Source: a virus
DNA: 12,569 nt
Direction: 5' to 3' (one strand)
IMG/VR virus record: IMGVR_UViG_3300020216_000004
Shown: in pieces, positions 1 through 12,569 of the stretch
Numbering within the stretch: the first letter of the stretch is position 1
Layout: each line of letters opens with the position of its first letter
Translations under genes and position numbers: made by a program
The notes under the pieces: model-generated
The model's input: only the letters and a program-made list of their open reading frames with translations
Database searches by the model: none
Told to the model about the DNA's origin: nothing

Positions 1-576
1 CCCCTATTGTAAATTGTCAGACAATTCCCCATAACACATTAGAATATGATGAGTCAATAGATATGAGAGTAATATTAGTCAACACTAATTAAAATATAAT
101 AATAGAAAGATATGCAGTGGAAATGTATATAGAATAACTCAACAATAATAACAACTATAAATAATAAACTAGAATACTATAACACCAGTTAATTAGATAA
201 CTACTAGAAACACGATAACAACAGGTATGATAGAATACTATAAATAATAATATATAAATTAAATAAACTAAATTAAATAATAATAAATAATAACTATTAT
301 AAGATATCTGATAATTGAATATATACGAATAAATAAACTATATGAATTAGAGATAATAGTAATTAGGAATAATAATAATAGAAATGAATTAGAAGTGTAT
401 AGGAGGTGTTTGAATAGACAAGGTGAAGACTTACCTATCAAAGGTATTGAAACACTCACAACAAGCTTATATAGACTGTGAGATGTAGTATGTGATATAG
501 GTGTATGTAGATATAATAAAAGAAGTTATCTATAGAATTAACTATAAATAACCTCTTGTAATTTTGTATGGTTTAT
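1..576. repeat. Left inverted terminal repeat (ITR), 576 bp
   Basis: I reverse-complemented 1..576 in 60-nt blocks against 11994..12569 and found no mismatch. Identity ends at 577 (t) versus 11993 (c). The repeat starts at window base 1, so this looks like a true genome terminus. Confidence 0.95.
12..26. promoter_or_regulatory. Terminal palindrome AATTGTC-A-GACAATT, a candidate origin or protein-binding site (mirror copy at 12544..12558)
   Basis: Perfect 7-bp arms around a single central base. It is bracketed by CCCC at 1..4 and 27..30, and ATTGT is directly repeated at 6..10 and 13..17. It lies 11 nt from the genome end, where protein-primed replication origins are located. Confidence 0.4.
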
Positions 577-3500
577 TTAATTACTACTCCACTAGCAAGT
601 AACTGTTCTATGATATCTTTTTCATCTTCTGAAGCTGATATATCTAAGAATACATCAGATACTTCTACATAACCGTCTACTTCATGTAGGGTTACATAGT
701 CATTGGATTGCTTACCAAAGTCTGAGTTAGATTCATAAGGTATGTTTCTAATAACCTCAATGAATGGAGTTTCTAACTCGTTATGAATGTATCTACCAAT
801 CTCAGTTATTAGTGTATCTTTAGAAGACCTCATGAATGGTATCTCATGTGTTAATGGTATATCAGTTCTTGATACTAGCTTATTGCCTATCTTGCTACTG
901 TACACATTAAGGGTAGCTGTAGCATTGTATAGGTCTAACGATAGGGTAAGCTTGATATCTTGGTTAATAACATAGTCAGGGTCTATATAGATAGGCTGTT
1001 CATTGTATGGTACATGAATGTTAGTCTCAGTCTCCATATAGTCATAAACGTTGTGGTGCTCCTCTTCAACACGAATAGTTCCTAGGTCGAATAGAACCTT
1101 GTTATCTAACATGTAGTTAGCTTCTGCGTTCGATGTCCTTTGACCTATATTGATAGGTACTACTGCGTTACTAATCATCTCTTCAGGTAACTTAACAGGT
1201 AATGAATATAGGTTGTAGAAATAGTCTCCATAGTCTACTGTCTCACCGTTTACCAGGTCACCAAATCTATCTACACTTAAGGTGTTCAGTATAGACTGGT
1301 TAACAGGGTAGATATTAACGAAATTAGATACAAAACCGTCATAGGTCTTTTCTGAAGCTACTGCTGTAACTATAATCAGGGTAGTACCTGTGAATCGGTC
1401 TTCCCAGTACTCACCAATATTAAGAGTAAATACTGTCTTGTCTTCGTTAAAGTTAGGGTCTTCATCAGGGTATAAGTTAATTAAGTCAGGTGAATTATTA
1501 TCAAAGGTTCTAATGTCTAACTCAATACCTTCGTTGAATACAAAGCCATTATCAGCTGTAATTACAATAGTGTCCTCCTGGTTAACACCTCTACCTTCTG
1601 GAATGTTAGAGCTAGCGTTAACTAATTCTGACCCGAATCTGGCTCTAGGATAGCCTGCTATAGCTTCTACATGAATAGACTCTACTGTATCGGTAACTAA
1701 GGTGCTGAAGTCTAAACTTAATACTGTACCCTCTTCATTAAACTCTCCAGGTACTTCATGGAGCTTGTAGGAGACTTCTGAGCCATCTCCAAGGGTAACG
1801 GTAACCTCATGTAACTCAAAGCCTTCTAAAGCTTCATAATTGACTACAGTGAAGTTTGATACCGTATCGCTCTCGATACTTGATACTACGTTCTCTAATT
1901 CTTCGGTATACCCTACCTCAATTAACTCAGCTGTTGTAACCTGAATCTCTAAGGTAGTTAAGCCTGGTTCAAAGTATTCAGCAGGAATGATTTCAATTAC
2001 AGATTTACCTTCTACATCAGTTAAGTTTACTGTTTCATCATCACCGATTAAGGTAACTGAGTTCAGTATATAACCTTCATCAGAAGTAACTGTAATAGCT
2101 TGGTCTGGTTCTACCTCGATACCCTCTACATCTGTACTAGCGTTCTCTAACTCTTCATAGTACCGAATAGGGAAAGACTCTACAATCTCTTCCTGAGTGA
2201 TTACTGATATAGCAATGGTTAGATGGTCACCGTCTTCGAAATAGTCACCCCACTCGAATTTAACGTTACCATTCTGACCATATACTGGTAAGCTTACTGT
2301 CTCATAGGTATCTGGTGTACCAGGTGAACCTCCGAAACCGTTCCGTGGTGGCTCTCCATCAGTTCTCATGATTAACTCGATAGACTCGAAAGCGTGCGTG
2401 CTATAGGTCAGAACATCTACTGTATCGTTCTCATAGAGTCGTGTTACCCCATAGTAAGGGTAGTTCTCCCAAAACCCGCTTGAGTCTCCATTTACAGGCA
2501 TATCCCAGGTTACAGATTTAGGTGGCTTGTCACCTCTTACCTCTATAGCTGTGACTGGTTCTACTAATACCTCTTCGTCTATAACTTCCCTAGATACCTC
2601 TATACCGTCTTCATAGGTAATTAGAATTGTTAGGTTAGCTAATCCATCTGAACCCTCTATGTATTCTGTATCACCAATTAGAATCGTATCGTCATAGACT
2701 ACCTCTTCATCGTGAGGAATAACCTCTTCTACTGTGATAGTTTCTGTGGTAACTTCAGGCTCATAGTTAGGGTCTGCATAGGTGTATACCAACGTATCGA
2801 AACCTTGAAGCTCTCCAGGGTTAGGATAACCTCTACCTGGTGCATAGGTAAATTCTGTTTGCTCATATACGTTGTCGTCATCGTTAGGTATCTCAGCGTC
2901 CTGTACATCTAGTAACCAACCATCGTTAACTGTCCAAACATCTACTGAAATTGTGTCGAACGTATAACCAGGGTTAGCTCTAATTGTGATTGGTTGAGCC
3001 CATTGGTAAGTATCAGGTTCTACTGTATATGTATCATCATTCCCCTGCTTACTGATTGGTACAGGGTCATACGTTGGTTCTAACGTACCTATTACCTGGA
3101 TAGCATTAACAGGTTCTAACACTACCTCATACCCTATAACTTCCCTAGATACTTCTACACCGTCTTCTAAGGTAATCTCATAGGTAATACTCATGATACC
3201 CTCAGTACCCTCTATAAGCTCTTCCTCACCTACAGGCATAGTATCGTCTTCTACGGTATCTGTTTCATACTCTATTGGTTCTTCTATCGTCTCTTCTTCT
3301 ACAGTTATTACAGGTTCAGTCTGTACAGGTGTTACATAGATGTCAATAATCGTTAAGTCCGGGTAATAAGTAGTGTTACCATCTCGTAACTCATGTACGA
3401 TATAAGAGTTTGTAGGCTCGAAATATACTGTGTTAGCTTCTCTATCTACTTGGATATATTGAGGATATTCTGCGTCTGTGTATTTACCTCTAGCGTTGGT

Positions 3501-3752
3501 AATGTACCCTGAACCTAAGTCTTCTTCTACCTCTACTCTATCAATCGTGTAATCTTGACTAACGGTTAATATGTAATCATGGTGCCAATTAAAGCTTGTA
3601 GAAACCGATTGTGTATTCTCAACATTTACAACGATATCGTCTACATCTGTAGAGCCATCAGTATTAAACACGTTAAACTCTACATATTTGTCTGTACTCG
3701 TTGCTATGGGTCTAGTAGACTCTTTTTCACCGAATCTAAATGCAAGTGCCAT
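573..3752 (-). CDS. Large modular tail protein (1059 aa): repeated beta-rich modules plus two G5 domains, fused to a phi29 gp9-like tail-knob C-terminal domain
   Basis: Start is preceded by AGGAGGTTAAATA-ATG, with the SD embedded in the last codons of the upstream ORF. The C-terminal ~255 aa (about nt 576..1346) end in ...GYVEVSDVFLDISASEDEKDIIEQLLASGVVIK, resembling the phi29 gp9 C-terminus ...[33 protein letters not shown] (recalled). It is the last gene of the structural block. Its TAA stop (573..575) lies just inside the ITR. Confidence 0.8.
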   Translation of the reverse strand: MALAFRFGEKESTRPIATSTDKYVEFNVFNTDGSTDVDDIVVNVENTQSVSTSFNWHHDYILTVSQDYTIDRVEVEEDLGSGYITNARGKYTDAEYPQYIQVDREANTVYFEPTNSYIVHELRDGNTTYYPDLTIIDIYVTPVQTEPVITVEEETIEEPIEYETDTVEDDTMPVGEEELIEGTEGIMSITYEITLEDGVEVSREVIGYEVVLEPVNAIQVIGTLEPTYDPVPISKQGNDDTYTVEPDTYQWAQPITIRANPGYTFDTISVDVWTVNDGWLLDVQDAEIPNDDDNVYEQTEFTYAPGRGYPNPGELQGFDTLVYTYADPNYEPEVTTETITVEEVIPHDEEVVYDDTILIGDTEYIEGSDGLANLTILITYEDGIEVSREVIDEEVLVEPVTAIEVRGDKPPKSVTWDMPVNGDSSGFWENYPYYGVTRLYENDTVDVLTYSTHAFESIELIMRTDGEPPRNGFGGSPGTPDTYETVSLPVYGQNGNVKFEWGDYFEDGDHLTIAISVITQEEIVESFPIRYYEELENASTDVEGIEVEPDQAITVTSDEGYILNSVTLIGDDETVNLTDVEGKSVIEIIPAEYFEPGLTTLEIQVTTAELIEVGYTEELENVVSSIESDTVSNFTVVNYEALEGFELHEVTVTLGDGSEVSYKLHEVPGEFNEEGTVLSLDFSTLVTDTVESIHVEAIAGYPRARFGSELVNASSNIPEGRGVNQEDTIVITADNGFVFNEGIELDIRTFDNNSPDLINLYPDEDPNFNEDKTVFTLNIGEYWEDRFTGTTLIIVTAVASEKTYDGFVSNFVNIYPVNQSILNTLSVDRFGDLVNGETVDYGDYFYNLYSLPVKLPEEMISNAVVPINIGQRTSNAEANYMLDNKVLFDLGTIRVEEEHHNVYDYMETETNIHVPYNEQPIYIDPDYVINQDIKLTLSLDLYNATATLNVYSSKIGNKLVSRTDIPLTHEIPFMRSSKDTLITEIGRYIHNELETPFIEVIRNIPYESNSDFGKQSNDYVTLHEVDGYVEVSDVFLDISASEDEKDIIEQLLASGVVIK
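2529..2741 (-). other. G5 domain 2 within the tail protein (aa ~338-408)
   Basis: TITVEEVIPHDEEVVYDDTILIGDTEYIEGSDGLANLTILITYEDGIEVSREVIDEEVLVEPVTAIEVRGD is a paralogue of domain 1. The DNA also matches: 2581..2621 versus 3136..3176 agree at 37 of 41 nt (ATAACTTCCCTAGATAC...). Confidence 0.75.
3084..3311 (-). other. G5 domain 1 within the tail protein (aa ~148-223)
   Basis: VITVEEETIEEPIEYETDTVEDDTMPVGEEELIEGTEGIMSITYEITLEDGVEVSREVIGYEVVLEPVNAIQVIGT fits the G5 pattern: I-x-[FY]-x-T-x(3)-D-x(2)-[LM]-x(2)-G, then EG-x-x-G, Y-E-[IV]-T, DG-x-E-V-x-R-E-V, P-V-x-x-I-x-V-x-G-T. Confidence 0.75.
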
Positions 3753-3755
3753 TAT

Positions 3756-4187
3756 TTAACCTCCTATCGTTACTAAAATAATATTCTCTTCAAACTCTAG
3801 TGTTACATCGCTATCGTATATATCGTGAGTCTTCCTAACCTCACTTGGATAGTCTCCACCGTTATAATATGGGTTATGTCCTAAGTGTTTAGATACAACA
3901 CCCTTACAAGCTAGTATCTCATCTTTGAAGCTTTCTAATACGTCTACCTCTAAGATTAATCTGGATAGATTATTTCTTTGAGCTATGATATCCTTAACGA
4001 AATAGAAGCGTTCGAAATCTGGGATATAAGCATAATTTTTACTGGTACGCTCTCCTTCTTTTAGGAGTATTTCAGGGTTTAATACATCAGCTTCACCTCT
4101 GAATTGAACTTCATAGGTAGCTTCATCAGATAACTCTTTATTGATAGTGTTATTGGAGCTGGTTGTGTTATACAACTTTATTTCCAT
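3756..4187 (-). CDS. 143-aa tail protein resembling the N-terminal domain of the phi29 gp9 tail knob / distal tube protein
   Basis: SD AAGGAGGG lies upstream of the ATG. NYAYIPDFERFYFVKDIIAQRNNLSRLILEVDVLESF...GVVSKH...IILVTIGG parallels recalled gp9 [42 protein letters not shown]...FIVREH...MFLVIISKS. The ORF stops 3 nt before the start of the 1059-aa ORF. Confidence 0.65.
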   Translation of the reverse strand: MEIKLYNTTSSNNTINKELSDEATYEVQFRGEADVLNPEILLKEGERTSKNYAYIPDFERFYFVKDIIAQRNNLSRLILEVDVLESFKDEILACKGVVSKHLGHNPYYNGGDYPSEVRKTHDIYDSDVTLEFEENIILVTIGG

Positions 4188-4208
4188 GTGGTGTTACCCT
4201 CCTTAGTT

Positions 4209-4245
4209 ATAAAAAAATAGAGGTAGAGTTCCCCAACTCCACCCC
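4209..4245 (-). terminator. Rho-independent terminator downstream of the major capsid gene
   Basis: Minus-strand RNA reads GGGGUGGAGUU-GGGG-AACUCUACCUC, an 11-bp stem with two G-U pairs and a GGGG loop. It is followed directly by UAUUUUUUUAU. Confidence 0.7.
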
Positions 4246-4283
4246 TACAGGTAATAAAGCATGGCATTGCTTTATTGATTCTT

Positions 4284-5444
4284 TTAAGCTACAAGGAACA
4301 CAAGGAAGTTTTCATTTAAGTCATTGAAGTATCCTGCGTCCATCTTGTAATAGTTCGTGAAGAACTCGGCTTTAGCATTATAGTTTGAAGTAACTCGTCG
4401 GTCTAAGTTAGCAACTCCTACCGCTTGGCTATCAAACATAACTCCTAAGATTCCGGAAGCTTCTATTTCTGTATTTTTAGTAGCTACGTTAATTTTAGAT
4501 ACTGATTCAAAGTCATATGTATCTCCTGAACCTTGCCAGTATGGTACTGTTTCGTAATTAGGTAGCTGAACCATTTCACTATTATATGTATCTGATTGTA
4601 AGAATGTTTTAGTAGCACTTGCAAAGTCAGATAATAGAACAATAGTAACTTCTGATTCTGGTGTAAATTTCTCTTTCCCACCAACGTTAAATAATGTAGA
4701 AATCTTACTCATACGGTCTTTATATAGGTTAACTAAGTATGAAGCAAAACGAATAAATTCAGGGTCTCTATAGCTTTCATCTGGTGTTAGAGCTTCACCT
4801 GATTTTTCGTTGTATAATGCAAGTAAGTTAATTGCTTTAACTCCTGTTTGAGTTAAATCTAAAGTACCTTCAGCATTGGTTAAGTCATCTGATAATGTTT
4901 CAGCAGTCATATTGTTGATTGCTCTCATTACCAATCCATCTAGTTTAATAGTCATAGATTTCTCTACACCATTGAAAATCATAGTTAAGAATCCATTTAA
5001 TTGTTCTGCGTTTGAGAATGATTCTTTAACTTGTAATTCAGTAAATGAAATTGGTACTTCAAATGTTACCTTAGAGTTAAAGAACTTAGCTGATACCTTA
5101 GGTTGATAGAACACATCTTGGATATAACGCTGTCCATCCTCTAGAGCCCAAGACTCGTTCTCGTGTGCTTCAGGAATATCAGAAGAAATCTTTTCTAAGA
5201 TAGAACCATATTCCCAACCGTCCATAATTACACTAGGAACGTTACCTGAATAAACTCTATCATCAAAGATTACCTTACCAATATGGTTAACTAGTTTCTT
5301 TACATAGTTATCAATGTTATCTGAATCAATGATTTCATTACCAACATCTACAATGTTAGATAAGTCTTCTTGTACAACGTCTTCACGTCCTAAGACTTGT
5401 TCTGTAGCTGTATTCATAATGTCATGTATTTGCGTTACTCTCAT
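4284..5444 (-). CDS. Major capsid protein (386 aa), phi29 gp8-like HK97 fold
   Basis: The N-terminal region ...NIDNYVKKLVNHIGKVIFDDRVY... parallels recalled gp8 ...[22 protein letters not shown].... Its size and position in the structural block fit, and it is flanked by its own extended -10 element and a terminator, as expected for the most abundant virion protein. Confidence 0.8.
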   Translation of the reverse strand: MRVTQIHDIMNTATEQVLGREDVVQEDLSNIVDVGNEIIDSDNIDNYVKKLVNHIGKVIFDDRVYSGNVPSVIMDGWEYGSILEKISSDIPEAHENESWALEDGQRYIQDVFYQPKVSAKFFNSKVTFEVPISFTELQVKESFSNAEQLNGFLTMIFNGVEKSMTIKLDGLVMRAINNMTAETLSDDLTNAEGTLDLTQTGVKAINLLALYNEKSGEALTPDESYRDPEFIRFASYLVNLYKDRMSKISTLFNVGGKEKFTPESEVTIVLLSDFASATKTFLQSDTYNSEMVQLPNYETVPYWQGSGDTYDFESVSKINVATKNTEIEASGILGVMFDSQAVGVANLDRRVTSNYNAKAEFFTNYYKMDAGYFNDLNENFLVFLVA

Positions 5445-5475
5445 TATTCATTTCCCCTTTTTCTATTTTATATAT

Positions 5476-6096
5476 TTAATATACCAACGTACCAACCGTT
5501 TGACTTACATCTTGGAATATATTTTCTACTAAAACTTTGTTATTTAGATATCTAACTGCTTTCTCTCGGTCGTCGATAGCGTTGGAAGTATTTCCCTTAG
5601 TTTCAGAAGTCCTTGTTTCATTACCGCTTGTTATCTCTGAGTTGTCTCCAGTATTAGTACTACTTTGAGTGTTCTCGTCAGAGTCAGCAAAGTCTTCTGA
5701 GTTGTACCCTGCAACTGAATTAGTTTGCTTGTCATTACTAGTGTTAGAGTAGTCAGTAATGTTACTACTATCTGACTCAGTTTTTTCAGTTGTGGTTAGG
5801 TTATATGTCTCTAGTGGTATCTCAGCCTTATAAACTTCTGCAAGCTTATTCCATTTGTCAGCGTACATACCATATAACATACTAGCTATTAATTTTAAGT
5901 CTTCCTCTTTAACATTCTCTTTCTCTCCAATTAAGTTATTAACTAGGGGAGAAACCTTCCTGCTACCGTGTTGACTCACGAATAGCAGGTCAGTAGTTGA
6001 GATGTCTTGGAAGTCATTTAGGAGTTCTATATCACCAATCTCATTGAGATAGTGAAACAGACCTTTACCTTCTTTGTATAAGTCTCTTATATTCAT
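5476..6096 (-). CDS. 206-aa structural protein of uncertain role (lower-collar/adaptor or scaffold candidate)
   Basis: A clean ORF between the portal and capsid genes. It has an N-terminal helical-looking ~100 aa, a central ~70-aa S/T/N/D/E-rich low-complexity tract (TTEKTESDSSNITDYSNTSNDKQTNS...TSGNETRTSETKGNTSN), and a short conserved-looking C-terminus. Its position after the portal matches gp11, and its position before the capsid matches gp7. Confidence 0.6.
   Translation of the reverse strand: MNIRDLYKEGKGLFHYLNEIGDIELLNDFQDISTTDLLFVSQHGSRKVSPLVNNLIGEKENVKEEDLKLIASMLYGMYADKWNKLAEVYKAEIPLETYNLTTTEKTESDSSNITDYSNTSNDKQTNSVAGYNSEDFADSDENTQSSTNTGDNSEITSGNETRTSETKGNTSNAIDDREKAVRYLNNKVLVENIFQDVSQTVGTLVY
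5478..5486 (-). promoter_or_regulatory. Extended -10 element TGGTATATT upstream of the capsid gene
   Basis: The minus strand reads TTGGTATATTAA and overlaps the last codons and stop of the 206-aa ORF. The capsid SD (AAGGGG) and ATG lie about 20-35 nt downstream. It is one of four TGnTATATT copies, all at gene junctions. Confidence 0.5.
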
Positions 6097-6118
6097 ACCC
6101 TTATTACTCCCTATCTAT

Positions 6119-6127
6119 AATATAGCA
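6119..6127 (-). promoter_or_regulatory. Extended -10 element TGCTATATT upstream of the 206-aa gene
   Basis: The minus strand reads TTGTGCTATATTATAGATAGGGAG in the 82-nt portal/206-aa intergenic gap, with the SD 7 nt downstream of the hexamer. No convincing -35 is present. Confidence 0.5.
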
Positions 6128-6178
6128 CAAAGGCTACTTTAAAATTTGATAGTAGAGGTGCGTTCTAACAACGCTAGA

Positions 6179-7525
6179 TTACTCTACTTCTACTTCTTCC
6201 TTGTCTTCTTCTTCCTCTTCTTCAGGTTCTTCTAGAATCTCTTCTAAGTCTTCTACTAAGTCCTCTTTGTCTTCCTCTTCAACTGGTTCATCAGTCTCTA
6301 AGGTTTCCTCTAAGTCCTCTTCAAAGTCTTCTACATCCTCTTTAAGCTCTACATCCTCAATATCTACAGTATCTTGTTCAGGTAACTCTTCTACTTCCTG
6401 CTCAGGTAGTTCTTCAGAAGTATCTTGAATAGGTAAGTCCTCTACTTCTTGTTCAGGTAGTTCTGAGTCGTATTCTAGGTCTAATATAACCTCTTCAGTT
6501 TCTTCTACAGGGTTAACTTCATCTTGCTCCTCAAACTCTTCAGAAGCCTCATAATCACCTTTTAAGAAACTGTCAGAAATCTCTCTAGCTTCATCTATAC
6601 TGATACCTTCATTACCTTCTTCGTTAAGCGTGTTAACCTCGTCTTGGTTCTCTCTATAGTCAGTCCATGAAGAGCTTAGCTTAACTGTAATGTTTTGGTC
6701 GAACATCTCGTTAACCTCTTCTATAGCTTCCTTACGATGGGATAACATATCATCAATTAGAGGGTATAAGCTTTCACTATTTACCTGTACTTCATCAGTA
6801 ATTAAACGCTCTTTCTTCATGTTGTTATTAGCATTTAAACCAATCTCGTTGTACATAGTAGCTTTAAGGTACTGTTGAAACTCTACAAGGTCACTAATAT
6901 TAGTTTTAGAACCTTCACCAACTGCGTTTGATTTCAAACTATCGAATAGCTTATTCTCAAAGATATATCCTAAGTTACCCTTTTCAATGTTATCTAAGTA
7001 CTCTTTAGCTGACTCAGCTGTATTATCATCAGCAACCGAAATCATGTTATTGATACGGTTATTGAATGTAGTTAACATCATAGTAATCTCATTTTCATTC
7101 ATGAAAGTACCATACTTAGAGTAGATAGGAACTAACCCCATAAGCATATAGTCATTTTTCATAAGTACTATGTCTTCACCAATTTTAAGGTTACCATTGT
7201 AGTTAAGGTAAGGGTTTGAGACTGTAAATAAAGTTGGTTTTCCATATACGTTAGGCTCTCCACCTAGTCCACCATAGAAGGCATATAGTTCTCCTTCTAC
7301 CTTAGTTAACCCCGCGTAACCGTTTGTCTGTAGCAGGCGTTCTAACTCTTTAGCAGGTAGTGAATCGGGTAACCCTTCATACTCAAACATCTGTAAAGAC
7401 CTGTTAAGCATGTAGTTTACATGGTTTCTTACGTTGATTTGCTTATCATCATACTGGTACTTAATACCTTTAATACCATTGTATAAGCCCCAATCATATC
7501 GCTCATTGTATTTGCTTTTACTCAT
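6179..7525 (-). CDS. Portal / upper collar connector (448 aa), phi29 gp10-like core plus a polyacidic C-terminal extension
   Basis: LQMFEYEGLPDSLP parallels recalled gp10 YQLFEWENLPPTINP, and NMKKERLITDEV parallels LEKKERMVTDEV. The start is AAGGAGCGTATAT-ATG, overlapping the ATPase stop. The homologous core ends near aa 285, and aa 291-448 are about half Asp/Glu. Confidence 0.9.
   Translation of the reverse strand: MSKSKYNERYDWGLYNGIKGIKYQYDDKQINVRNHVNYMLNRSLQMFEYEGLPDSLPAKELERLLQTNGYAGLTKVEGELYAFYGGLGGEPNVYGKPTLFTVSNPYLNYNGNLKIGEDIVLMKNDYMLMGLVPIYSKYGTFMNENEITMMLTTFNNRINNMISVADDNTAESAKEYLDNIEKGNLGYIFENKLFDSLKSNAVGEGSKTNISDLVEFQQYLKATMYNEIGLNANNNMKKERLITDEVQVNSESLYPLIDDMLSHRKEAIEEVNEMFDQNITVKLSSSWTDYRENQDEVNTLNEEGNEGISIDEAREISDSFLKGDYEASEEFEEQDEVNPVEETEEVILDLEYDSELPEQEVEDLPIQDTSEELPEQEVEELPEQDTVDIEDVELKEDVEDFEEDLEETLETDEPVEEEDKEDLVEDLEEILEEPEEEEEEDKEEVEVE
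6365..6466 (-). repeat. Tandem 2 x 51-nt (17-aa) repeat inside the acidic portal tail
   Basis: SELPEQEVEDLPIQDTS is followed by EELPEQEVEELPEQDTV (aa 354-387). On the plus strand, 6388..6413 and 6439..6464 match at 23 of 26 nt. Confidence 0.85.
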
Positions 7526-7536
7526 ATATACGCTCC

Positions 7537-8667
7537 TTATAGTTGTTTACTAACGTTTAAGTAGTTATTAACTGAATCTCCTACATCATTATCTTGATAG
7601 AACACTTTATCAGTATCAAAGAAATACTTAATGTTTTTACCTAGCTTGTTAACTGGTTTATGAATACTTCTTTGATAGTTGAACTTGTGACTGAACTCTA
7701 AGCTGTAAATGATGTCTTCGTCTTCATCCTTGATTGGTGTTGTCTTATCATGAATGAATGTAAACATCTCATTATCTACCTCTATGATTTCACATTGATA
7801 AATGAATCCATCAAACTTAATAAAGTAGGTTAGTAAGATATCTTTAGCTTTATATTTAACTGGTAAGTGAGGGTAGATATCTAATTCCCATGCACCATCT
7901 GTAATCATGTTTAACTTAGGGTTATCAAAGGCAAAGTAGAAGTTATTCTTTTTATTTTTTGATGTTGATTGTGCATACTCTACTGCTACCTTTAAGTTAG
8001 AATCCCCATATGTGTAGAGGTCTATAGTTCCCTGGTCTTGCTTATGGATATGCTTAAGCCCCATCTCGTTAAAGTAAGGGCTGTACTTATTAACCGTGTT
8101 ACCTAGCATGAATATCGTTACATCTTTACGTTGGCGTATAATCGTACTCAACGTATTCATGAAGAGTACAAACTCATCCTTTAAGTACATACCTCTGGTT
8201 AAGAACTCATCAAAGAGTATTGTCTTAATATTAGGGTAAGAGAATGATTTGTTATGTTCTGTATCTGACAAAGCAAACACATAGGCAAAGATATCACTAT
8301 CGCTGTATACCGCTCTACCTTCATCATCGTAGTTACAGAAGTAGAATCTACCTGAGTAATAGGTAATACCTTCAAACTTACCATCACTAATCTTATAGAT
8401 TTCATCGTTGGCAATTAGGGCACTAAAGATTTCACTAGCTCTTTTACCCTTAATGTCTTCTTGCCACCGTCTAAGGAGGGCTAACTGCCCGCCATTTTCA
8501 AAGTATACCTCTATAGCATGCTTCAGTACTGCGTATGTCTTACCATTGGAACGTTCCCCGAATATAACGTTATAAACTGCTTTTTTAGATAGAATAGCGT
8601 TCAGGTTATAGTAGCTATCCTGTTTATTTTTAGGTTTGTCTTTTTTGCTTGTATCTGTTTGTACCAT
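7537..8667 (-). CDS. DNA encapsidation ATPase, phi29 gp16-like (376 aa from the preferred start)
   Basis: Walker A is GERSNGKT (8536..8559). Walker B YPNIKTILFDEFL matches recalled gp16 YPNVSTIVFDEFI, and NKYSPYF matches VVNPYF. I prefer the ATG at 8665..8667 (GGAGGTTATCAG-ATG) over the ORF-track ATG at 8709. The 8709 start has no SD and lies upstream of the TGCTATATT element at 8690..8698. Confidence 0.9.
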   Translation of the reverse strand: MVQTDTSKKDKPKNKQDSYYNLNAILSKKAVYNVIFGERSNGKTYAVLKHAIEVYFENGGQLALLRRWQEDIKGKRASEIFSALIANDEIYKISDGKFEGITYYSGRFYFCNYDDEGRAVYSDSDIFAYVFALSDTEHNKSFSYPNIKTILFDEFLTRGMYLKDEFVLFMNTLSTIIRQRKDVTIFMLGNTVNKYSPYFNEMGLKHIHKQDQGTIDLYTYGDSNLKVAVEYAQSTSKNKKNNFYFAFDNPKLNMITDGAWELDIYPHLPVKYKAKDILLTYFIKFDGFIYQCEIIEVDNEMFTFIHDKTTPIKDEDEDIIYSLEFSHKFNYQRSIHKPVNKLGKNIKYFFDTDKVFYQDNDVGDSVNNYLNVSKQL

Positions 8668-8689
8668 CTGATAACCTCCATCACTATAT

Positions 8690-8698
8690 AATATAGCA
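8690..8698 (-). promoter_or_regulatory. Extended -10 element TGCTATATT upstream of the ATPase gene
   Basis: The minus strand reads CAGGTGCTATATTATATAGTGATGGAGG, between the polymerase stop (8724) and the ATPase SD (8675..8679). Confidence 0.5.
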
Positions 8699-8723
8699 CC
8701 TGAGTTCATCTAATCTGCTTAGA

Positions 8724-10865
8724 CTAGATAGCCCTTGTTAGTTTCTCACCTTCATAGATATACCCTTTACGGTATCTTTCAATCAATTGAGTTTGTTTCT
8801 CTAAAGGTGATAACGTAAATTCAGCATTCTCTAGGTGTATACCTGATTTAGTGTAGACTGCTTCTTTTACCCCTCTATAATCGGTTATCACAAACTGCTT
8901 AATGTCATCAATGTAAACGTGATTCATATTACCTGTATCTTCAGCAGGGATAGATAAGCTCTTATTAAAGTTGTTAAACACGTTCGTGTTGTCTCCAAAG
9001 GTTCTCTGAAGGTAAGATAAGCCCTTGTCCTTACTTAAGCCTGCTAAGGTCATTTCTAGGTCTCCTGTAGCCTTATCTTCAACTAGATACTGCTTAGCTC
9101 CTAGTGCTTTAAAACGGCTGTATTTACCGTCTAATTCCCATGTACCTATAAGTTTCTTTTCACCGTATTTGTTCTCGGGTCTAAGTCTCTCAAAGTCTAT
9201 CGTGAAAGACTCATCACTAACGGGTTTATTTAGGGTATCTACCATCTTCTTAAGCTTCATTTCAATCATCTTGTTATACTGTTCAAAGAAGCCTTCATGC
9301 TTCTCAGGTTCTTTAAGCTTAACTGCGTCTGTATCTGAGTAAACATAGTCATCTTTAAGGTTCAGGATAGCCACCCAAAGGTTTCTGCGGGCATAGGCTG
9401 TTGTCCATACACCCCAAGGGTAATATAAGAAGCGGGAGTGCTTGGTGTTGTATTTCTCAATCTGTTTATCAGGAGTCTCTTCTTCTATGTCCTCAGTCTC
9501 TTCAAAGTCAGGCTGTTTTCTAACTACATCTGTAACGGTCATACCGTATACTGAGTTAAGCATTTCCTTGCTTAGTAAATACTCAGTTTGTCGGTCAGGA
9601 ACGCCTTTATTGATTGTTTTTTTCTCATATAATGTTATAATAGACTTAATAAGGTTTCTAGGTAGATAGTCCTTTTTGAACCTATAAACATTGGCTATTT
9701 GCATAGATTCCCAATCATAGACTTTTTGAATAATCTCAAAGTCTACATCTGTAATTGTGGTTACCAGTTCATCAGCCGAAAACACTCTACCGTTATTTAC
9801 AATCGGTTTTTTAACAACATGGCATTTTGACTCTGATATGTAGTTCTCAAAATCAATCTTACTGATAAGGTCTTTGAATCTTACATCAAAGAGTAAGGCA
9901 TAGCCCTGCTTGATATAATGGTTTAAGTCCTTATCCTTTGTTAGCTTGGTACTGATTCCTTCACTCATAGGGAACTGTTCAGATAGCATAGCGGCAGGGT
10001 AAGAGCTTATCAGGTCATAACTGGCTACATCCTCAATTACCTCATTAGCATAGCTTGGATTAGCGTGTGTGAAACCACCCATAAATCCATCCTTGCTCTT
10101 TTCGTATACATCTCTAGTTAACTGAAGCTTAAGCATTAAGTTTCTATAGTCTGTACGTTTACCCCTACTCGTTTTCTTGTGGTCGGTATTCGTGTAATAA
10201 CAGTTGTGTCGAATGTAATTTCTAACTCTAGCTGTATTGGTTAACGGTATCTTGGATATATTCCCGTATATCCTTCTTTGTTCGTTAATGTAATACAGTA
10301 TAATTAGTACATCATTTCTCATGTACTCTAGCTCTTTAGTGAATAGTACTGTGTTCTGGTGTCTTACCTTAGTATAATCAAGTTCACCTTTGAGTTTCTT
10401 AATCTCATGGTGTACAAGGCTGTCAGCTACATCTGACAAGCTTTTACCGCTTAGTATATAACTATCACGAAACTCTATACCTGATTTAGTGGTGGCTGTG
10501 ATTGGTTTCCTGCTGTCAGTTCCGAAAACTTGCTTCCAGGTAAACCATTTTCTCATGAACTGAAATTCATAAGATAAGTTATGTATATAAACGATAAGCC
10601 TTCTATCTTCCTTTAAGTTGTAAAACTTTTGTAGATAGTTGACTAGTTCACGGAATTGCTTCCAAGTCCTTCCATGAACGATATTCTCATTATTCTTTAT
10701 TCCGAAAGTCCAGGCATACATGAAACCAACTTTTTCACCATCTACAATGGTAGAAGTTGTTTCAACATCGAATGCACATTCAATGTCTACATATGTAGCG
10801 TTGCCTTTTCTTTTGTTTGATTTTATTTCTTTGTGGTCTATGTCTTCCAAATTTAAACCATACAT
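8724..10865 (-). CDS. Protein-primed family-B DNA polymerase (713 aa), phi29 gp2-like
   Basis: Motifs seen: Exo I AFDVETT; Exo II IHNLSYEFQF; Exo III YMRNDVLII; motif A DLISSYPAAM; motif B KEMLNSVYG; motif C YSDTDA (9324..9341, checked at the DNA level); KxY GAKQYLV. Long inserts between motifs A-B and B-C sit where phi29 has TPR1 and TPR2. Confidence 0.95.
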   Translation of the reverse strand: MYGLNLEDIDHKEIKSNKRKGNATYVDIECAFDVETTSTIVDGEKVGFMYAWTFGIKNNENIVHGRTWKQFRELVNYLQKFYNLKEDRRLIVYIHNLSYEFQFMRKWFTWKQVFGTDSRKPITATTKSGIEFRDSYILSGKSLSDVADSLVHHEIKKLKGELDYTKVRHQNTVLFTKELEYMRNDVLIILYYINEQRRIYGNISKIPLTNTARVRNYIRHNCYYTNTDHKKTSRGKRTDYRNLMLKLQLTRDVYEKSKDGFMGGFTHANPSYANEVIEDVASYDLISSYPAAMLSEQFPMSEGISTKLTKDKDLNHYIKQGYALLFDVRFKDLISKIDFENYISESKCHVVKKPIVNNGRVFSADELVTTITDVDFEIIQKVYDWESMQIANVYRFKKDYLPRNLIKSIITLYEKKTINKGVPDRQTEYLLSKEMLNSVYGMTVTDVVRKQPDFEETEDIEEETPDKQIEKYNTKHSRFLYYPWGVWTTAYARRNLWVAILNLKDDYVYSDTDAVKLKEPEKHEGFFEQYNKMIEMKLKKMVDTLNKPVSDESFTIDFERLRPENKYGEKKLIGTWELDGKYSRFKALGAKQYLVEDKATGDLEMTLAGLSKDKGLSYLQRTFGDNTNVFNNFNKSLSIPAEDTGNMNHVYIDDIKQFVITDYRGVKEAVYTKSGIHLENAEFTLSPLEKQTQLIERYRKGYIYEGEKLTRAI

Positions 10866-10883
10866 TAAAGTCTCACCCCTAAC

Positions 10884-11453
10884 CTACATGTCGAACCAAT
10901 CCCAGGTATTAATTTCATTCTCAATGTTCACCTGGTCAGCTTTAGCTTCTTCTATAAGAGCTTCTAGGTGGTCGCTTAGTTCACCTATTTCCAATCCTTC
11001 TCGTTCAGCATAGTTATTGATAAGAGCCCATCTTTCCTGGTACTCCATATATGTTGAATCCGGGTCGTTCTTTTGGTACTGCTCTAGCTTAGAAGCTACA
11101 TCAGCTGTCTCTTTAATCTTATTAGGTAAGTCTCTAATAGAGTTATACTTAATACCCATTCTATCAGCGGTATCTTTAAGTACTCTATTTGCTCCCCTTA
11201 CAAGGCTTGTCTTGGAGTTTAAGAAGTTATCTACCCTGTTGAGTTCTTTTCTAAGTACGTTAACATCAGTTCCCGCTGATGAAAATCGTTCTCCTCCACG
11301 GTAGTTATTCTCATTACTCCAAGACCTGTAAGCAGGCAAGCCTGTTAAGTCATTCTCTTCCAATCGCTTTAACCGTTTATTGGCTTTAGACACCTTACCT
11401 CTTAGTTCATCGGTTAATCGTTTAGCTTCACCTTCCAGTTTTAGCTTCATCAT
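10884..11453 (-). CDS. Candidate terminal (priming) protein, 189 aa
   Basis: It lies immediately upstream of the protein-primed polymerase, as in phi29, Cp-1, PRD1 and Bam35. The start has a strong SD (AAGGAGGAGTTTAATGA-ATGATG). The N-terminus is basic (KVSKANKRLKRLEE) and the C-terminus is acidic and helical. Resemblance to recalled phi29 gp3 is only weak. Confidence 0.5.
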   Translation of the reverse strand: MMKLKLEGEAKRLTDELRGKVSKANKRLKRLEENDLTGLPAYRSWSNENNYRGGERFSSAGTDVNVLRKELNRVDNFLNSKTSLVRGANRVLKDTADRMGIKYNSIRDLPNKIKETADVASKLEQYQKNDPDSTYMEYQERWALINNYAEREGLEIGELSDHLEALIEEAKADQVNIENEINTWDWFDM

Positions 11454-11468
11454 TCATTAAACTCCTCC

Positions 11469-11735
11469 TTATATCTCGAATACATTACTGATAAAGACCT
11501 TCTTATTAAGACCTTTACTGAGGTTATAGTAATGATAGAGGTAATCTATACTGTTGGCATTTCCATGCTCGAAAGCTGATACACTCTTGATGTTAAGGTC
11601 AGTTAACTCTCCAAAATCAGTTAGAGATAACCTTAAGTAATCCTCTCGATACTTCTTACAGAACCTACCTATCTTCTTCATACGTTGTTTCTTATCGTAT
11701 TTACCTACATTCTCTTTAGTAAGTGTGTTATCCAT
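11469..11735 (-). CDS. XRE-like helix-turn-helix DNA-binding protein (88 aa)
   Basis: IGRFCKKYREDYLRLSLTDFGELTDLNIKSVSAFEHGNANS fits the HTH_3/Cro-C1 pattern (R-x(3)-L-S-x(3)-[FL]-x(4)-[VIL]-x(3)-[VIL]-S-x-[FIW]-E-x-G). The start is GGAGGATTAAC-ATG. It is the second gene of the early transcription unit. Confidence 0.6.
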   Translation of the reverse strand: MDNTLTKENVGKYDKKQRMKKIGRFCKKYREDYLRLSLTDFGELTDLNIKSVSAFEHGNANSIDYLYHYYNLSKGLNKKVFISNVFEI

Positions 11736-11745
11736 GTTAATCCTC

Positions 11746-11868
11746 CTATTTAATAGTTTCCCAGTATTCCATCAATTCTACATAAGCAAGTAATCCACCT
11801 GCTGTAAACTTCGCATTACTACGCTCACATAACTTCTTGTAGTCGAATATCATCTGTACGTTAACCAT
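11746..11868 (-). CDS. Small 40-aa ORF, first gene of the early unit (absent from the supplied ORF track)
   Basis: I translated it by hand as MVNVQMIFDYKKLCERSNAKFTAGGLLAYVELMEYWETIK. The start is AAGGAGGTATTGA-ATG. Its TAG stop abuts the SD of the HTH gene. No family was recognised. Confidence 0.45.
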   Translation of the reverse strand: MVNVQMIFDYKKLCERSNAKFTAGGLLAYVELMEYWETIK

Positions 11869-11901
11869 TCAATACCTCCTTGTCTATGACCTCTTATACC
11901 T

Positions 11902-11930
11902 AATATAGCATAACTACTCTAGTAATCTAA
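11902..11930 (-). promoter_or_regulatory. Candidate early promoter: TTAGAT, 17-nt spacer, (TGC)TATATT
   Basis: The minus strand reads TTCTTAGATTACTAGAGTAGTTATGCTATATTAGG, about 27 nt upstream of the SD of the first ORF. A consensus TTGACA also lies further upstream (11951..11956) but has no good -10 partner. Confidence 0.5.
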
Positions 11931-11993
11931 GAATAGGATAATTATTCTAATGTCAATAGAACACTGCGTACAGATATACAATTACAGTATACC

Positions 11994-12569
11994 ATAAACC
12001 ATACAAAATTACAAGAGGTTATTTATAGTTAATTCTATAGATAACTTCTTTTATTATATCTACATACACCTATATCACATACTACATCTCACAGTCTATA
12101 TAAGCTTGTTGTGAGTGTTTCAATACCTTTGATAGGTAAGTCTTCACCTTGTCTATTCAAACACCTCCTATACACTTCTAATTCATTTCTATTATTATTA
12201 TTCCTAATTACTATTATCTCTAATTCATATAGTTTATTTATTCGTATATATTCAATTATCAGATATCTTATAATAGTTATTATTTATTATTATTTAATTT
12301 AGTTTATTTAATTTATATATTATTATTTATAGTATTCTATCATACCTGTTGTTATCGTGTTTCTAGTAGTTATCTAATTAACTGGTGTTATAGTATTCTA
12401 GTTTATTATTTATAGTTGTTATTATTGTTGAGTTATTCTATATACATTTCCACTGCATATCTTTCTATTATTATATTTTAATTAGTGTTGACTAATATTA
12501 CTCTCATATCTATTGACTCATCATATTCTAATGTGTTATGGGGAATTGTCTGACAATTTACAATAGGGG
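11994..12569. repeat. Right inverted terminal repeat (ITR), 576 bp
   Basis: Exact reverse complement of 1..576 and ends at the last base of the window. The identical 63-aa ORF reported at 268..459(-) and 12111..12302(+) is a by-product of this repeat. Confidence 0.95.
12095..12123 (-). promoter_or_regulatory. Weak inward-facing promoter candidate inside the ITR: TTGAAA, 17-nt spacer, TATAGA (mirror copy 447..475 on the plus strand)
   Basis: Sequence match only. At the right end it would read toward the early genes. At the left end the mirror copy would read antisense into the 3' end of the tail gene. Confidence 0.25.

Follow-up and report, generated by a model that had tools for sequence, protein, structure and literature searches.

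The window analysed here, the whole 12,569-nt stretch of viral DNA, begins and ends with the same sequence in opposite orientations, and it raises the question of what so long an inverted terminal repeat (ITR) signifies. Bases 1–576 are the exact reverse complement of bases 11994–12569, with 100% identity, and the match stops abruptly at position 577. Together the two copies account for 1152 of 12569 nt, or 9.17% of the genome. The original prediction, that the first and last 576 nt are exact reverse complements making up about 9% of the genome, is upheld on recomputation. Since a perfect match over 576 nt cannot have arisen by chance, we conclude that the repeat is real. The left ITR (1–576, plus strand) and its inverse copy, the right ITR (11994–12569, minus strand), have a GC content of 23.4%, against 35.6% for the genome, and their inner boundaries enclose a core of 11,417 bp.

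The perfection of the repeat has to be read with some care. An ITR is a single node in the assembly graph, so that identical copies ending at the same base are expected from any assembler, and perfect identity and symmetry are thus no independent proof of identical copies or of true physical ends. The same appearance would be produced if one copy were an assembly artefact and the true molecule carried a single-ended repeat or were a circle or a concatemer. Artefacts of this kind exist, as in the relatives L019 and L055, whose 50-bp 'ITR' holds Nextera adapter sequence; the ITR of the window is not an adapter. Two further assemblies bear on the matter. The Logan contig SRR7698816_9080 (11477 bp) is 100% identical to positions 547–12023 of the window and consists of the core flanked on either side by exactly 30 nt of ITR (547–576 on the left and the inner 30 nt on the right), 30 nt being k-1 at k=31, which we take to be the Logan setting. 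The JGI scaffold Ga0116604_10136 (3300009048) is the same phage, with three mismatches to the window, and carries 300 nt of ITR (positions 277–576) past the tail gene and the inner 78 nt upstream of the early region. Only the assembly of the window itself covers the outermost 276 nt of the ITR. In the Logan contig as in the JGI scaffold, the two ends of the core run into the repeat in inverted orientation, which makes a repeat at one end only impossible, and the suspicion that one copy is an assembler duplication is not borne out. A circular form would require a perfect palindrome of 1152 bp, of which we know no case in the phi29-like group, and isolated relatives carry ITRs and the gene set is of the protein-primed linear phage type. 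We therefore regard an artefactual origin of the repeat as most improbable and infer that the genome is linear. The JGI scaffold does contain a chimeric junction, at ITR position 498/499. Because phage and Tetragenococcus genes are linked in a 30.8-kb JGI contig, chromosomal integration was considered. It was rejected, since the link consists of one N, placed at this ITR position and interrupting a transketolase open reading frame, and is a scaffolding chimera.

Each end of the window carries an origin-like motif, CCCC-N22-CCCC, at positions 1–30 (plus strand) and, mirrored, at 12540–12569, with the palindrome AATTGTCaGACAATT inside it at 13–27. The termini of relatives consist of GGG, about 7 nt, a C-run, 13–22 nt and CCCC; the layout of a C-run followed by CCCC is common to Phanie, DU_PP_III, Entb_47, L013 and L028, with GGG and about 7 nt before it. 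Because these termini extend outward of the C-run and the window begins at CCCC, terminal bases are likely to be absent. Judged from this alignment of motifs, the window probably starts inside the terminal C-run and probably lacks some 6–10 or more nt at each end, so that the claim that it starts and stops exactly at the ITRs does not establish the physical ends.

Ten genes, all on the minus strand, form a phi29-type set. The product of g1 (11746–11868, 40 residues), preceded by AAGGAGG, is of no known function and gave no match in family searches. That of g2 (11469–11735, 88 residues) is homologous to the product of the gene that comes first in Phanie, DU_PP_III and Entb_47 (BLASTP, 34–40% identity, E about 1e-4 to 1e-5); it has no Pfam match and, by eye, resembles a helix-turn-helix protein. 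Directly upstream of the polymerase gene, g3 (10884–11453, 189 residues) is a candidate for the terminal protein. It is homologous to Astrid ORF2 and Phanie gp2 (31–44% identity), is conserved throughout the clade, has 34 homologues of about 195 residues and gives an all-α AF2 model (pLDDT 71). Pfam, PDB sequence and profile searches, Foldseek with the AF2 model and hhalign (Cp-1 and asccphi28) revealed no sequence, profile or fold match to the terminal proteins of phi29, Cp-1 or asccphi28, and g3 is probably the terminal protein on the grounds of its position. The polymerase itself, g4 (8724–10865, 713 residues), is a protein-primed-type family B enzyme (PF03175, E = 4e-21; phrog_1907, E = 2.5e-72). 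Its only PDB match is phi29 DNA polymerase (1XHX/2EX3), in an alignment that spans motifs A, B and C and, on our reading against phi29 residue numbers, appears to include the TPR1 region and a TPR2-like insertion.

The packaging and structural genes follow. A gp16-type DNA packaging ATPase is encoded by g5 (7537–8709, 390 residues; PF05894, phrog_2150) and an upper collar connector by g6 (6179–7525, 448 residues), in which PF05352 and phrog_2038 match residues about 30–300 and are followed by an acidic, repeat-containing C-terminal extension of roughly 150 residues, with a 51-nt tandem repeat at 6368–6464. By position only, g7 (5476–6096, 206 residues; one weak PHROG match, of unknown function) fills the slot of the relatives' small lower-collar gene, the equivalent slot in Astrid-like phages being assigned to the lower collar (PMC11476376). 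The phi29-type major capsid protein (MCP) is g8 (4284–5444, 386 residues; PF25622, E = 1e-51). A minor, N-terminal-part tail-knob protein, g9 (3756–4187, 143 residues), shares 31–34% identity with Astrid ORF9 and Phanie gp9, and its role is assigned after PMC11476376, section 2.6. The major tail-knob protein, g10 (573–3752, 1059 residues), has two G5 domains (PF07501 twice), and its C-terminal 250 residues align at 26–30% identity with Astrid ORF10 and its homologues to their last residue. A lysin hidden in g10 was sought and rejected, no segment giving a lysin-domain Pfam match. The matches to PF05894, PF05352 and PF25622 all exceed the Pfam cut-offs, and the PHROG terminase, connector and major head families match too. 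The window thus shares with the broad phi29-like group a protein-primed-type polymerase, ITRs, a gp16 ATPase, a connector and a phi29-type MCP. Where the original prediction spoke of a terminal-protein-capped linear replicon, this gene set and synteny with isolated linear phages that have ITRs too support a linear replicon with ITRs at its ends and of protein-primed, phi29-like type; the protein cap is putative and is deduced from the position of g3.

The closest parallels are the Astrithr-like phages (Salmonella Astrid/astrithr/assan, Phanie, DU_PP_III, Enterobacter Entb_47 and Shigella vB_SHGBLB0004; MCP cluster 23 of PMC11476376), which likewise have linear genomes of 11–12 kb, with ITRs and C-run termini. 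The window shows the collinear gene order, split tail knob and genome size of about 11–14 kb described for that cluster (PMC11476376, section 2.6). Its gene order is syntenic with Salmonella Astrid, Acinetobacter Phanie and Pectobacterium DU_PP_III, running from a small gene through the terminal-protein candidate, polymerase, ATPase, connector, a gene of about 200 codons and MCP to a two-gene tail knob, and, g7 aside, all of g2–g10 have homologues in matching order in one or other of Astrid, Phanie, DU_PP_III, Entb_47 and the Shigella phage. Identity to these phages is 44–48% for the polymerase, 57–62% for the MCP and 58–62% for the ATPase. Megablast against 50,697 phage records gave no match and hence no nucleotide-level similarity, and no relative closer than about 49% protein identity was found in the collections searched. 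By convention an ICTV genus is delimited at about 70% intergenomic identity; with no megablast match and proteins 26–62% identical, the phage falls within the wider Astrithr-like cluster and outside the genus Astrithrvirus.

The window departs from this cluster in its ITR. The ITRs of Astrithr-like isolates are 60–219 bp long, against 576 bp here. Across a survey of about 90 records and contigs of relatives, isolates had ITRs of 84, 171, 219 and about 144 bp, and metagenomic relatives reached 374 bp, followed by 286 and 272 bp; 576 bp is the maximum for the clade and 9.2% the largest genome share measured. The ITR had been predicted to be long in both absolute and relative terms, by comparison with lengths of which 236 bp for Streptococcus phage Cp-1 and 350 bp for Mycoplasma phage P1 are correct. 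The absolute part of that statement is overstated in view of a phage that it leaves out, Lactococcus phage asccphi28 (Salasmaviridae, NC_010363), likewise phi29-like and protein-primed, whose ITR, annotated and recomputed, is a perfect 577 bp and so of essentially equal length. As this ITR has been on record since 2008, length alone is neither surprising nor unprecedented; what stands out is the genome share and the rank in length within the clade. The relative part holds, at 9.2% against 6.2% in asccphi28 and 6.0% in Mycoplasma phage P1. The two long repeats are otherwise dissimilar. The genome of asccphi28 is 18.8 kb, with 28 open reading frames in two convergent blocks; its ITR is richer in GC than its genome (38.6% versus 33.7%), whereas that of the window is poorer (23% versus 36%); its terminal protein is unrelated to g3; and we found no homology of the window ITR to that of asccphi28 or to other ITRs.

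The ITR appears to be non-coding. Its core, at 125–395 (plus strand), falls to 11% GC and holds short direct repeats, which across the ITR comprise ACTATAAATAA at 154, 237 and 541, TAGAATACTATAA at 170 and 231, and AATAAACTA at 163, 262 and 332. Allowing at most one mismatch on both strands, ACTATAAATAA has 8 matches where 1.6 are expected and 0 of 200 shuffles reach 8, an enrichment that is overstated for an AT-rich segment since the shuffles had whole-window composition. Analysis of helical phasing and intrinsic curvature in the AT-rich core gave no periodicity above shuffles, and a p6-type platform there was rejected on this ground.

Towards the inner boundary there are two elements of likely regulatory character. 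An intrinsic-terminator hairpin with a 16-bp stem and a U-rich tail is predicted at 520–557 (minus strand), mirrored at 12013–12050 (plus strand); it lies 15 nt downstream of the tail-gene stop and reads outward. The minus-strand RNA folds with −17.6 kcal/mol (z = −5.4, 0 of 200 shuffles), against only −11.7 (z = −1.3) for the plus strand. At the opposite end, a promoter-like site is predicted at 11986–12014 (minus strand), with −35 TTGTAA (12014–12009), a 17-nt spacer and a TGn-extended −10 TATACT (11991–11986), from a consensus scan that found 44 sites where 49 are expected in shuffled sequence and so shows no excess. The −35 and the spacer lie within the right ITR and the −10 lies outside it. 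The left copy has AATTAC at the −10 position, so that no inward promoter directed against the tail gene is predicted to be recreated there. As had been predicted, the left inner boundary falls on the tail-gene stop: the tail-knob stop codon (573–575, minus strand) and the last base of the final codon (576) lie inside the ITR. The right boundary had been placed just upstream of the early promoter region; the boundary is found within the promoter-like site.

Regulatory elements in long ITRs have precedents in Cp-1, Mycoplasma phage P1 and asccphi28. Cp-1 (Cepunavirus, NC_001825) also has an AT-rich ITR (26.7% GC versus 38.8% for the genome), with a −35 annotated within the perfect 236-bp repeat and the corresponding −10 beyond it, the layout that we propose here. 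Its genome is 19.3 kb long, its perfect ITR is shorter (352 bp at 97.7%), and it carries a complete lysis cassette along with early genes at either end. Mycoplasma phage P1 (Delislevirus, NC_002515), only distant kin, is likewise linear, at 11.7 kb with 350-bp ITRs, which contain annotated regulatory elements and whose boundary reaches the initial codon of a gene. Its genes form two convergent operons with a promoter in each ITR, whereas in the window there is one operon, for which the far-end copy would supply the terminator. The ITR of asccphi28 is annotated with putative promoters and a terminator and no genes.

Might the length of the ITR instead reflect an encoded product, a packaging RNA (pRNA) or a small protein for instance, that is required twice or at the genome ends? 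Classic phi29-like packaging motors require pRNA, which in phi29 is transcribed outward from a gene close to the left end. As a non-coding stretch, only the ITR could accommodate an RNA of 120–170 nt, the other gaps being 82–125 nt, and an outward promoter and terminator pair is annotated in the asccphi28 ITR. Nevertheless, Rfam gave no pRNA match at E ≤ 1, and z stayed above −1.3 for sliding 120-nt folds across the ITR, whichever strand was folded, the terminator hairpin being the sole exception; a pRNA or other structured RNA was rejected accordingly. As to protein, the ITR contains a hydrophobic open reading frame of 63 codons (268–459 minus, 12111–12302 plus) and AGGAGG at 402–407. The reading frame has a GTG start without a Shine–Dalgarno sequence and is accounted for by the T-rich strand, about 0.6 such frames being expected by chance on a back-of-envelope estimate; AGGAGG is followed by no start codon at a suitable spacing, and no protein of any relative matches the ITR. 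A protein-coding ITR was therefore rejected too, both this frame and others of 21–28 codons being without proper starts or ribosome-binding sites and without homologues. Taken together, a coding role for the ITR seems improbable to us. Because pRNAs diverge fast, the absence of one does not bar membership of the broad phi29-like group, and we know of no pRNA reported for Astrithr-like phages. Bacillus phage phi29 has homologous polymerase, ATPase, connector and capsid families. It also has a pRNA gene near its left end, the DNA-binding proteins p5 and p6 and a lysis cassette, none of which was detected in the window; its ITR is 6 bp (PMC11476376, PMC4974454).

Gene content differs from that of relatives as well. 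Astrithr-like phages have a holin gene between those for the ATPase and the connector, an endolysin gene past the tail knob and three or four small opposite-strand genes at the far end; the window is without all of these. No trace of the relatives' holin, endolysin or far-end genes was found by tblastn at E ≤ 10, nor any remnant of the endolysin or small genes inside the ITR at the same threshold. Thus, the claim that the genome is complete stands for the structure of the replicon and not for a gene content that lacks elements of all isolated relatives. As g10 is full length to its last residue, the ITR begins where relatives begin the endolysin gene, and among the clade members examined only here does an ITR adjoin the last structural gene.

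These observations also suit a second reading, in which the genome is real and non-autonomous, a satellite or defective phage that lost one end, with its lysis and far-end early genes, and was rescued by copying the other, whence the long ITR. In its favour are the missing homologues of the holin (phrog_4898), the endolysin and the small genes, the failure to find a candidate small membrane reading frame with a ribosome-binding site, the want of a lysin domain in g10 and the position of the ITR against the last structural gene. Helper dependence has, moreover, been reported for Phanie in a review (PMC11476376), and the occurrence of the same architecture in two datasets 3 SNPs apart indicates a propagating lineage. 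Against this, failure to recognise lysis genes says little in so divergent a phage, with ten genes of which g1, g2 and g7 lack an assigned function; an endolysin is still present in Phanie itself; no helper was identified; and a junction at the natural stop of an intact gene is compatible as well with an old, selected arrangement. We hold this reading to be possible and rather doubtful.

A fuller version of it, a reduced, helper-dependent Astrithr-like mini-phage of the Gram-positive halophile Tetragenococcus that shed its lysis and far-end genes and bears an end-copied ITR as a panhandle aid, we consider unlikely. The Astrithr-like hosts are Gram-negative, whereas the G5 domains of the window phage and its occurrence together with Tetragenococcus hint weakly at a Gram-positive one. 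A scan of the MCP against 185,579 species genomes found nothing, and oligonucleotide signatures are uninformative as to host, only GC content fitting Tetragenococcus. The early genes at the far end of relatives are said to include an SSB; if this version were true, a panhandle formed by the displaced single strand would recreate a duplex origin and partly replace the lost functions. Such recreation of a duplex origin is the adenovirus-style route. The ten genes would then be the smallest known set for a tailed phage, and the phage the first of its cluster outside Gram-negative or Bacteroidales hosts.

The explanation that we prefer, and hold with good though not full confidence, is that the window represents a miniature phi29-like podovirus in the Astrithrvirus-like cluster, whose linear dsDNA genome is nearly complete here and is protein-primed at both ends. 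On the replication model borrowed from phi29 (PMC4974454), the outer tip of each ITR would be one origin, marked by the C-run motif common to the relatives. A complex of the g4 polymerase and the terminal protein, probably g3, would start synthesis at the tip and displace the other strand, and the terminal protein would remain covalently attached at the ends. The extremely AT-rich stretch of the ITR would be easily unwound. At the left end, the putative terminator would close a single leftward operon of 11.3 kb, 15 nt past the tail-knob stop; at the right end, the copy of the same sequence lies just upstream of the operon's promoter-like site. With the −35 as the last part of the ITR and the −10 in unique sequence, the left copy would not drive transcription against the tail gene. 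In all likelihood the repeat grew during strand-displacement replication, when template switching or panhandle repair copied one end to the other, and the copied repeat probably replaced the endolysin and small opposite-strand genes that relatives carry there.

On this account, a deep-branching lineage, without a nucleotide match and with about 47% polymerase identity, is added to the smallest tailed phages known, and ITR length within one protein-primed clade ranges from under 100 bp to 576 bp. The layout offers a concrete, testable picture of how ITR growth may reshape genome ends, the repeat apparently carrying the operon's terminator and half of the promoter of the opposite end in place of the lysis and early genes of relatives. 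If the loss of lysis genes does mean helper dependence, the satellite lifestyle recently demonstrated for Phanie would be extended to this lineage.

The first 576 nt of the window (1–576) and the last (11994–12569) are exact reverse complements, as the original prediction held, and the identity ends sharply at base 577. The two copies of the inverted terminal repeat (ITR) together account for 9.17% of the 12,569 nt. Their GC content is 23.4%, falling to 11% in the core of the ITR, against 35.6% for the whole window. Ten credible genes, all on the minus strand, occupy positions 573–11868, and the left ITR includes the stop codon of the last of them (573–575) together with a single base of the codon before it; the left inner boundary had thus been correctly placed at the tail-gene stop.

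The ITR forms a single collapsed node in the assembly graph, so that identical copies and symmetric ends are what any assembler would produce and are uninformative on their own. Independent evidence comes from two other assemblies. The Logan contig SRR7698816_9080 (11,477 bp) corresponds to positions 547–12023 with 100% identity and consists of the 11,417-bp core flanked on both sides by precisely 30 nt of ITR. Such a shape is characteristic of a graph with k=31, which we take to be the Logan setting, branching where both core ends join one shared node. The JGI scaffold Ga0116604_10136 (3300009048) contains the phage as well, three substitutions apart from the window, and follows the ITR for 300 nt past the tail gene and for 78 nt upstream of the early region. 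Both inner junctions are thereby confirmed in two datasets, which answers the earlier concern that one copy might be an assembler duplication; the outer 276 nt of the ITR are present in the window assembly alone. We conclude that the repeat is real.

The JGI scaffold (30.8 kb) runs on from the phage into chromosomal genes of Tetragenococcus and could be mistaken for a prophage. At the join (scaffold position 2116, ITR position 498/499), one N cuts short a transketolase open reading frame. Integration into the Tetragenococcus chromosome is therefore rejected in favour of a scaffolding chimera.

Comparison of the termini with those of relatives suggests that the window stops slightly short of the true ends. 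A clade-wide layout of GGG plus about 7 nt, a C-run of 5–10, 13–22 nt and CCCC is seen at the termini of L003, L004, L005, L013 and L028. The individual termini read GGGTTATCCG-C6-N16-CCCC in Phanie, GGGATATCCG-C10-N13-CCCC in DU_PP_III, GGGACTCA-C6-TA-CCCC in L028 and CGTACT-C7-N16-CCCC in L013. The two ends of Entb_47 differ in length by 5 nt, and the shorter begins exactly at CCCC, suggesting that it was truncated at the C-run. Positions 1–30 of the window read CCCC-N22-CCCC; it probably begins within the first C-run and, contrary to the original prediction that its ends are those of the ITR, would lack some 6–10 or more nucleotides at each end. In that case the full repeat would somewhat exceed 576 bp. 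A second subgroup (L016, L020 and L050) begins with AAAGGTAC, similar to AAAGTA of phi29. In two human-gut relatives, L019 and L055, the 50-bp 'ITR' (positions 1–50 and the opposite ends) contains the Illumina Nextera adapter GTCTCGTGGGCTCGGAGATGTGTATAAGAGACAG and is thus an artefact, one that ITR-based completeness calls would accept.

Homology and synteny lend good support to the view that this is a protein-primed linear phage genome. Its products include a family B DNA polymerase (PolB; PF03175, phrog_1907), an ATPase (PF05894), a connector (PF05352) and a capsid protein (PF25622). The sole solved-structure match of PolB is phi29 DNA polymerase, in an alignment that extends over motifs A, B and C; as we read it, the TPR1 and TPR2 regions are covered too. 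In the ExoII region (10560–10590, residues about 93–101), the motif reads HNLSYEFQF, with glutamate at what we take to be the position of the phi29 catalytic Asp66; the carboxylate is retained, and the residue departs from the canonical motif. No nucleotide match to the window was found among 50,697 phage records. The nearest relatives at the protein level are the Astrithr-like mini-phages, namely Salmonella Astrid, astrithr and assan, Acinetobacter Phanie, Pectobacterium DU_PP_III, Enterobacter Entb_47, a Shigella phage and a Vibrio phage, with identities of 44–48% for PolB, 58–62% for the ATPase and 57–62% for the major capsid protein, and with gene order identical throughout. A 2024 review places this group in major capsid protein cluster 23, with genomes of 11–14 kb, a terminal-protein counterpart and a tail knob split between two genes, and helper dependence has been shown for Phanie (PMC11476376). 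For the phage described here, covalent attachment of a terminal protein, the precise position of the ends and the capacity to multiply alone are all inferred.

The terminal-protein candidate is g3 (189 aa), by gene position only: it lies directly upstream of the polymerase gene and is homologous to the equivalent gene in all cluster members. Its 34 homologues are about 195 aa long, and its AF2 model, of moderate confidence (pLDDT 71), consists entirely of helices. Comparisons by Pfam, PDB sequence, PDB profile, Foldseek and hhalign all failed to connect g3 with the terminal proteins of phi29, Cp-1 or asccphi28. Past its Pfam domain, the connector carries an extremely acidic, E/D-rich C-terminal extension of roughly 150 aa (6179–6650), which includes a 51-nt tandem repeat at 6368–6464 and is longer than in most relatives, with connectors of 316–425 aa. 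The tail-knob gene g10 (573–3752) encodes 1059 aa, nearly twice the length of the major tail-knob protein of Astrid. Two G5 domains in its acidic N-terminal 800 aa are encoded by a 90-nt repeat of 80% identity at 2532–2621 and 3087–3176; among 5.8 billion proteins it has just two homologues, both distant and confined to the G5 region.

Tetragenococcus is a weak candidate for the host. G5 domains are found chiefly in surface proteins of Gram-positive bacteria. The transketolase protein on the chimeric scaffold is 94% identical to that of T. muriaticus, and the phage core has the same GC content as the scaffold partner, 36.8%. Oligonucleotide signatures are uninformative on host, and no relative of the phage was found in species-representative genomes. 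Only one podophage of Tetragenococcus, phiWJ7, has been sequenced, and it is a member of another family (PMC9045211).

ITRs are the rule within the clade, measuring 84 bp in Astrid, 171 bp in Phanie, 219 bp in DU_PP_III and about 144 bp in Entb_47. Those of IMG/VR relatives measure 286, 286 and 272 bp, with a maximum of 374 bp, and those of 63 metagenome loci at most 270 bp. The 576-bp ITR is the clade maximum, yet it lies on a continuum. Three classic genomes were measured outside the clade. The perfect ITR is 236 bp in Cp-1 (352 bp at 97.7% identity; 2.4% of the genome) and 350 bp in Mycoplasma phage P1 (6.0%), the lengths given in the original prediction, and 577 bp in asccphi28 (6.2%), which had been missed. 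The ITRs of asccphi28 and the window differ in length by one base pair and are without sequence similarity. The claim of unusual absolute length therefore falls, whereas that of unusual relative length stands, the share of 9.2% being the highest of all genomes compared. The ITR is thus a clade record and the largest measured share, neither unprecedented nor mechanistically new. The RefSeq record of asccphi28 (NC_010363) is marked 'circular' despite its annotated 577-bp ITRs and terminal protein, apparently through a mistake in the public metadata.

Within the ITR we detect no convincing gene, and relatives' proteins have no match there. A 63-aa reading frame (268–459, minus strand) was rejected, as it starts with GTG, lacks a Shine–Dalgarno sequence and has the hydrophobic product expected of a T-rich strand; inward frames of 21–28 aa have no workable starts. 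No Rfam pRNA was found in the ITR, nor any helical phasing of curvature, and among 120-nt folding windows none beats shuffled sequences except around 520–557. Here a hairpin with a 16-bp stem and a U-rich tail (minus strand) begins 15 nt past the g10 stop codon. It is strong on the outward-reading strand alone, with a folding energy of −17.6 kcal/mol (z = −5.4) there and −11.7 kcal/mol (z = −1.3) on the other strand; its G·U pairs turn into A·C mismatches on the complement. We read it as the predicted terminator of a single leftward operon. A second terminator-like hairpin (4217–4248, minus strand), with 14 pairs followed by TTTTTTT, lies in the 96-nt gap directly past the capsid gene and may reduce read-through to the tail genes. 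A match to the Rfam family 'cow-rumen-4', which at 26 bits is below the gathering score of 48.5, overlaps this hairpin.

The right ITR boundary splits a promoter-like site: TTGTAA and the spacer belong to the ITR, and beyond it lie TATACT and the G of a TGn motif. The left copy has AATTAC at the −10 position and hence no inward promoter facing the tail gene. A second promoter candidate, TGcTATATT, lies in unique sequence at 11910–11902. A promoter scan of the window yielded 44 sites, no more than the 49 expected from shuffled sequence, and both promoter-like sites are accordingly hypothetical. The layout is comparable to the annotated records of Cp-1, with the −35 element within the ITR and the −10 outside, of P1, with a promoter in each ITR, and of asccphi28, whose ITR holds promoters and a terminator. 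The direct repeat ACTATAAATAA occurs three times in each ITR copy, exactly and in the same orientation, and is absent from the rest of the window.

The alignment of g10 reaches the final residue of every homologue, so that the ITR begins at the natural stop codon of this gene. In relatives, an endolysin gene starts exactly at the end of the tail knob and is followed by three or four small opposite-strand genes at the far end, and a 62-aa member of a holin family lies between the ATPase and connector genes (comparison loci in the relative L002: 4230–4418, 9709–10164 and 10190–11403). Here the ATPase–connector gap is 11 nt and the ITR directly adjoins the tail knob. The window holds no trace of the relatives' holin, endolysin or small opposite-strand genes and no small membrane reading frame with a ribosome-binding site, and no lysin domain is detectable in g10. 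In all other ITR-bearing relatives examined, further genes separate the far ITR from the tail or lysin genes. The same architecture occurs in two datasets three substitutions apart, and it therefore propagates, either on its own or, in the manner of Phanie, with a helper. What intrigues most in this genome is the absence of the lysis and early module. Its simplest reading is that template switching or panhandle repair, in the course of strand-displacement replication, replaced one genome end with a copy of the other, which would have both lengthened the ITR and removed the lysis and far-end module.
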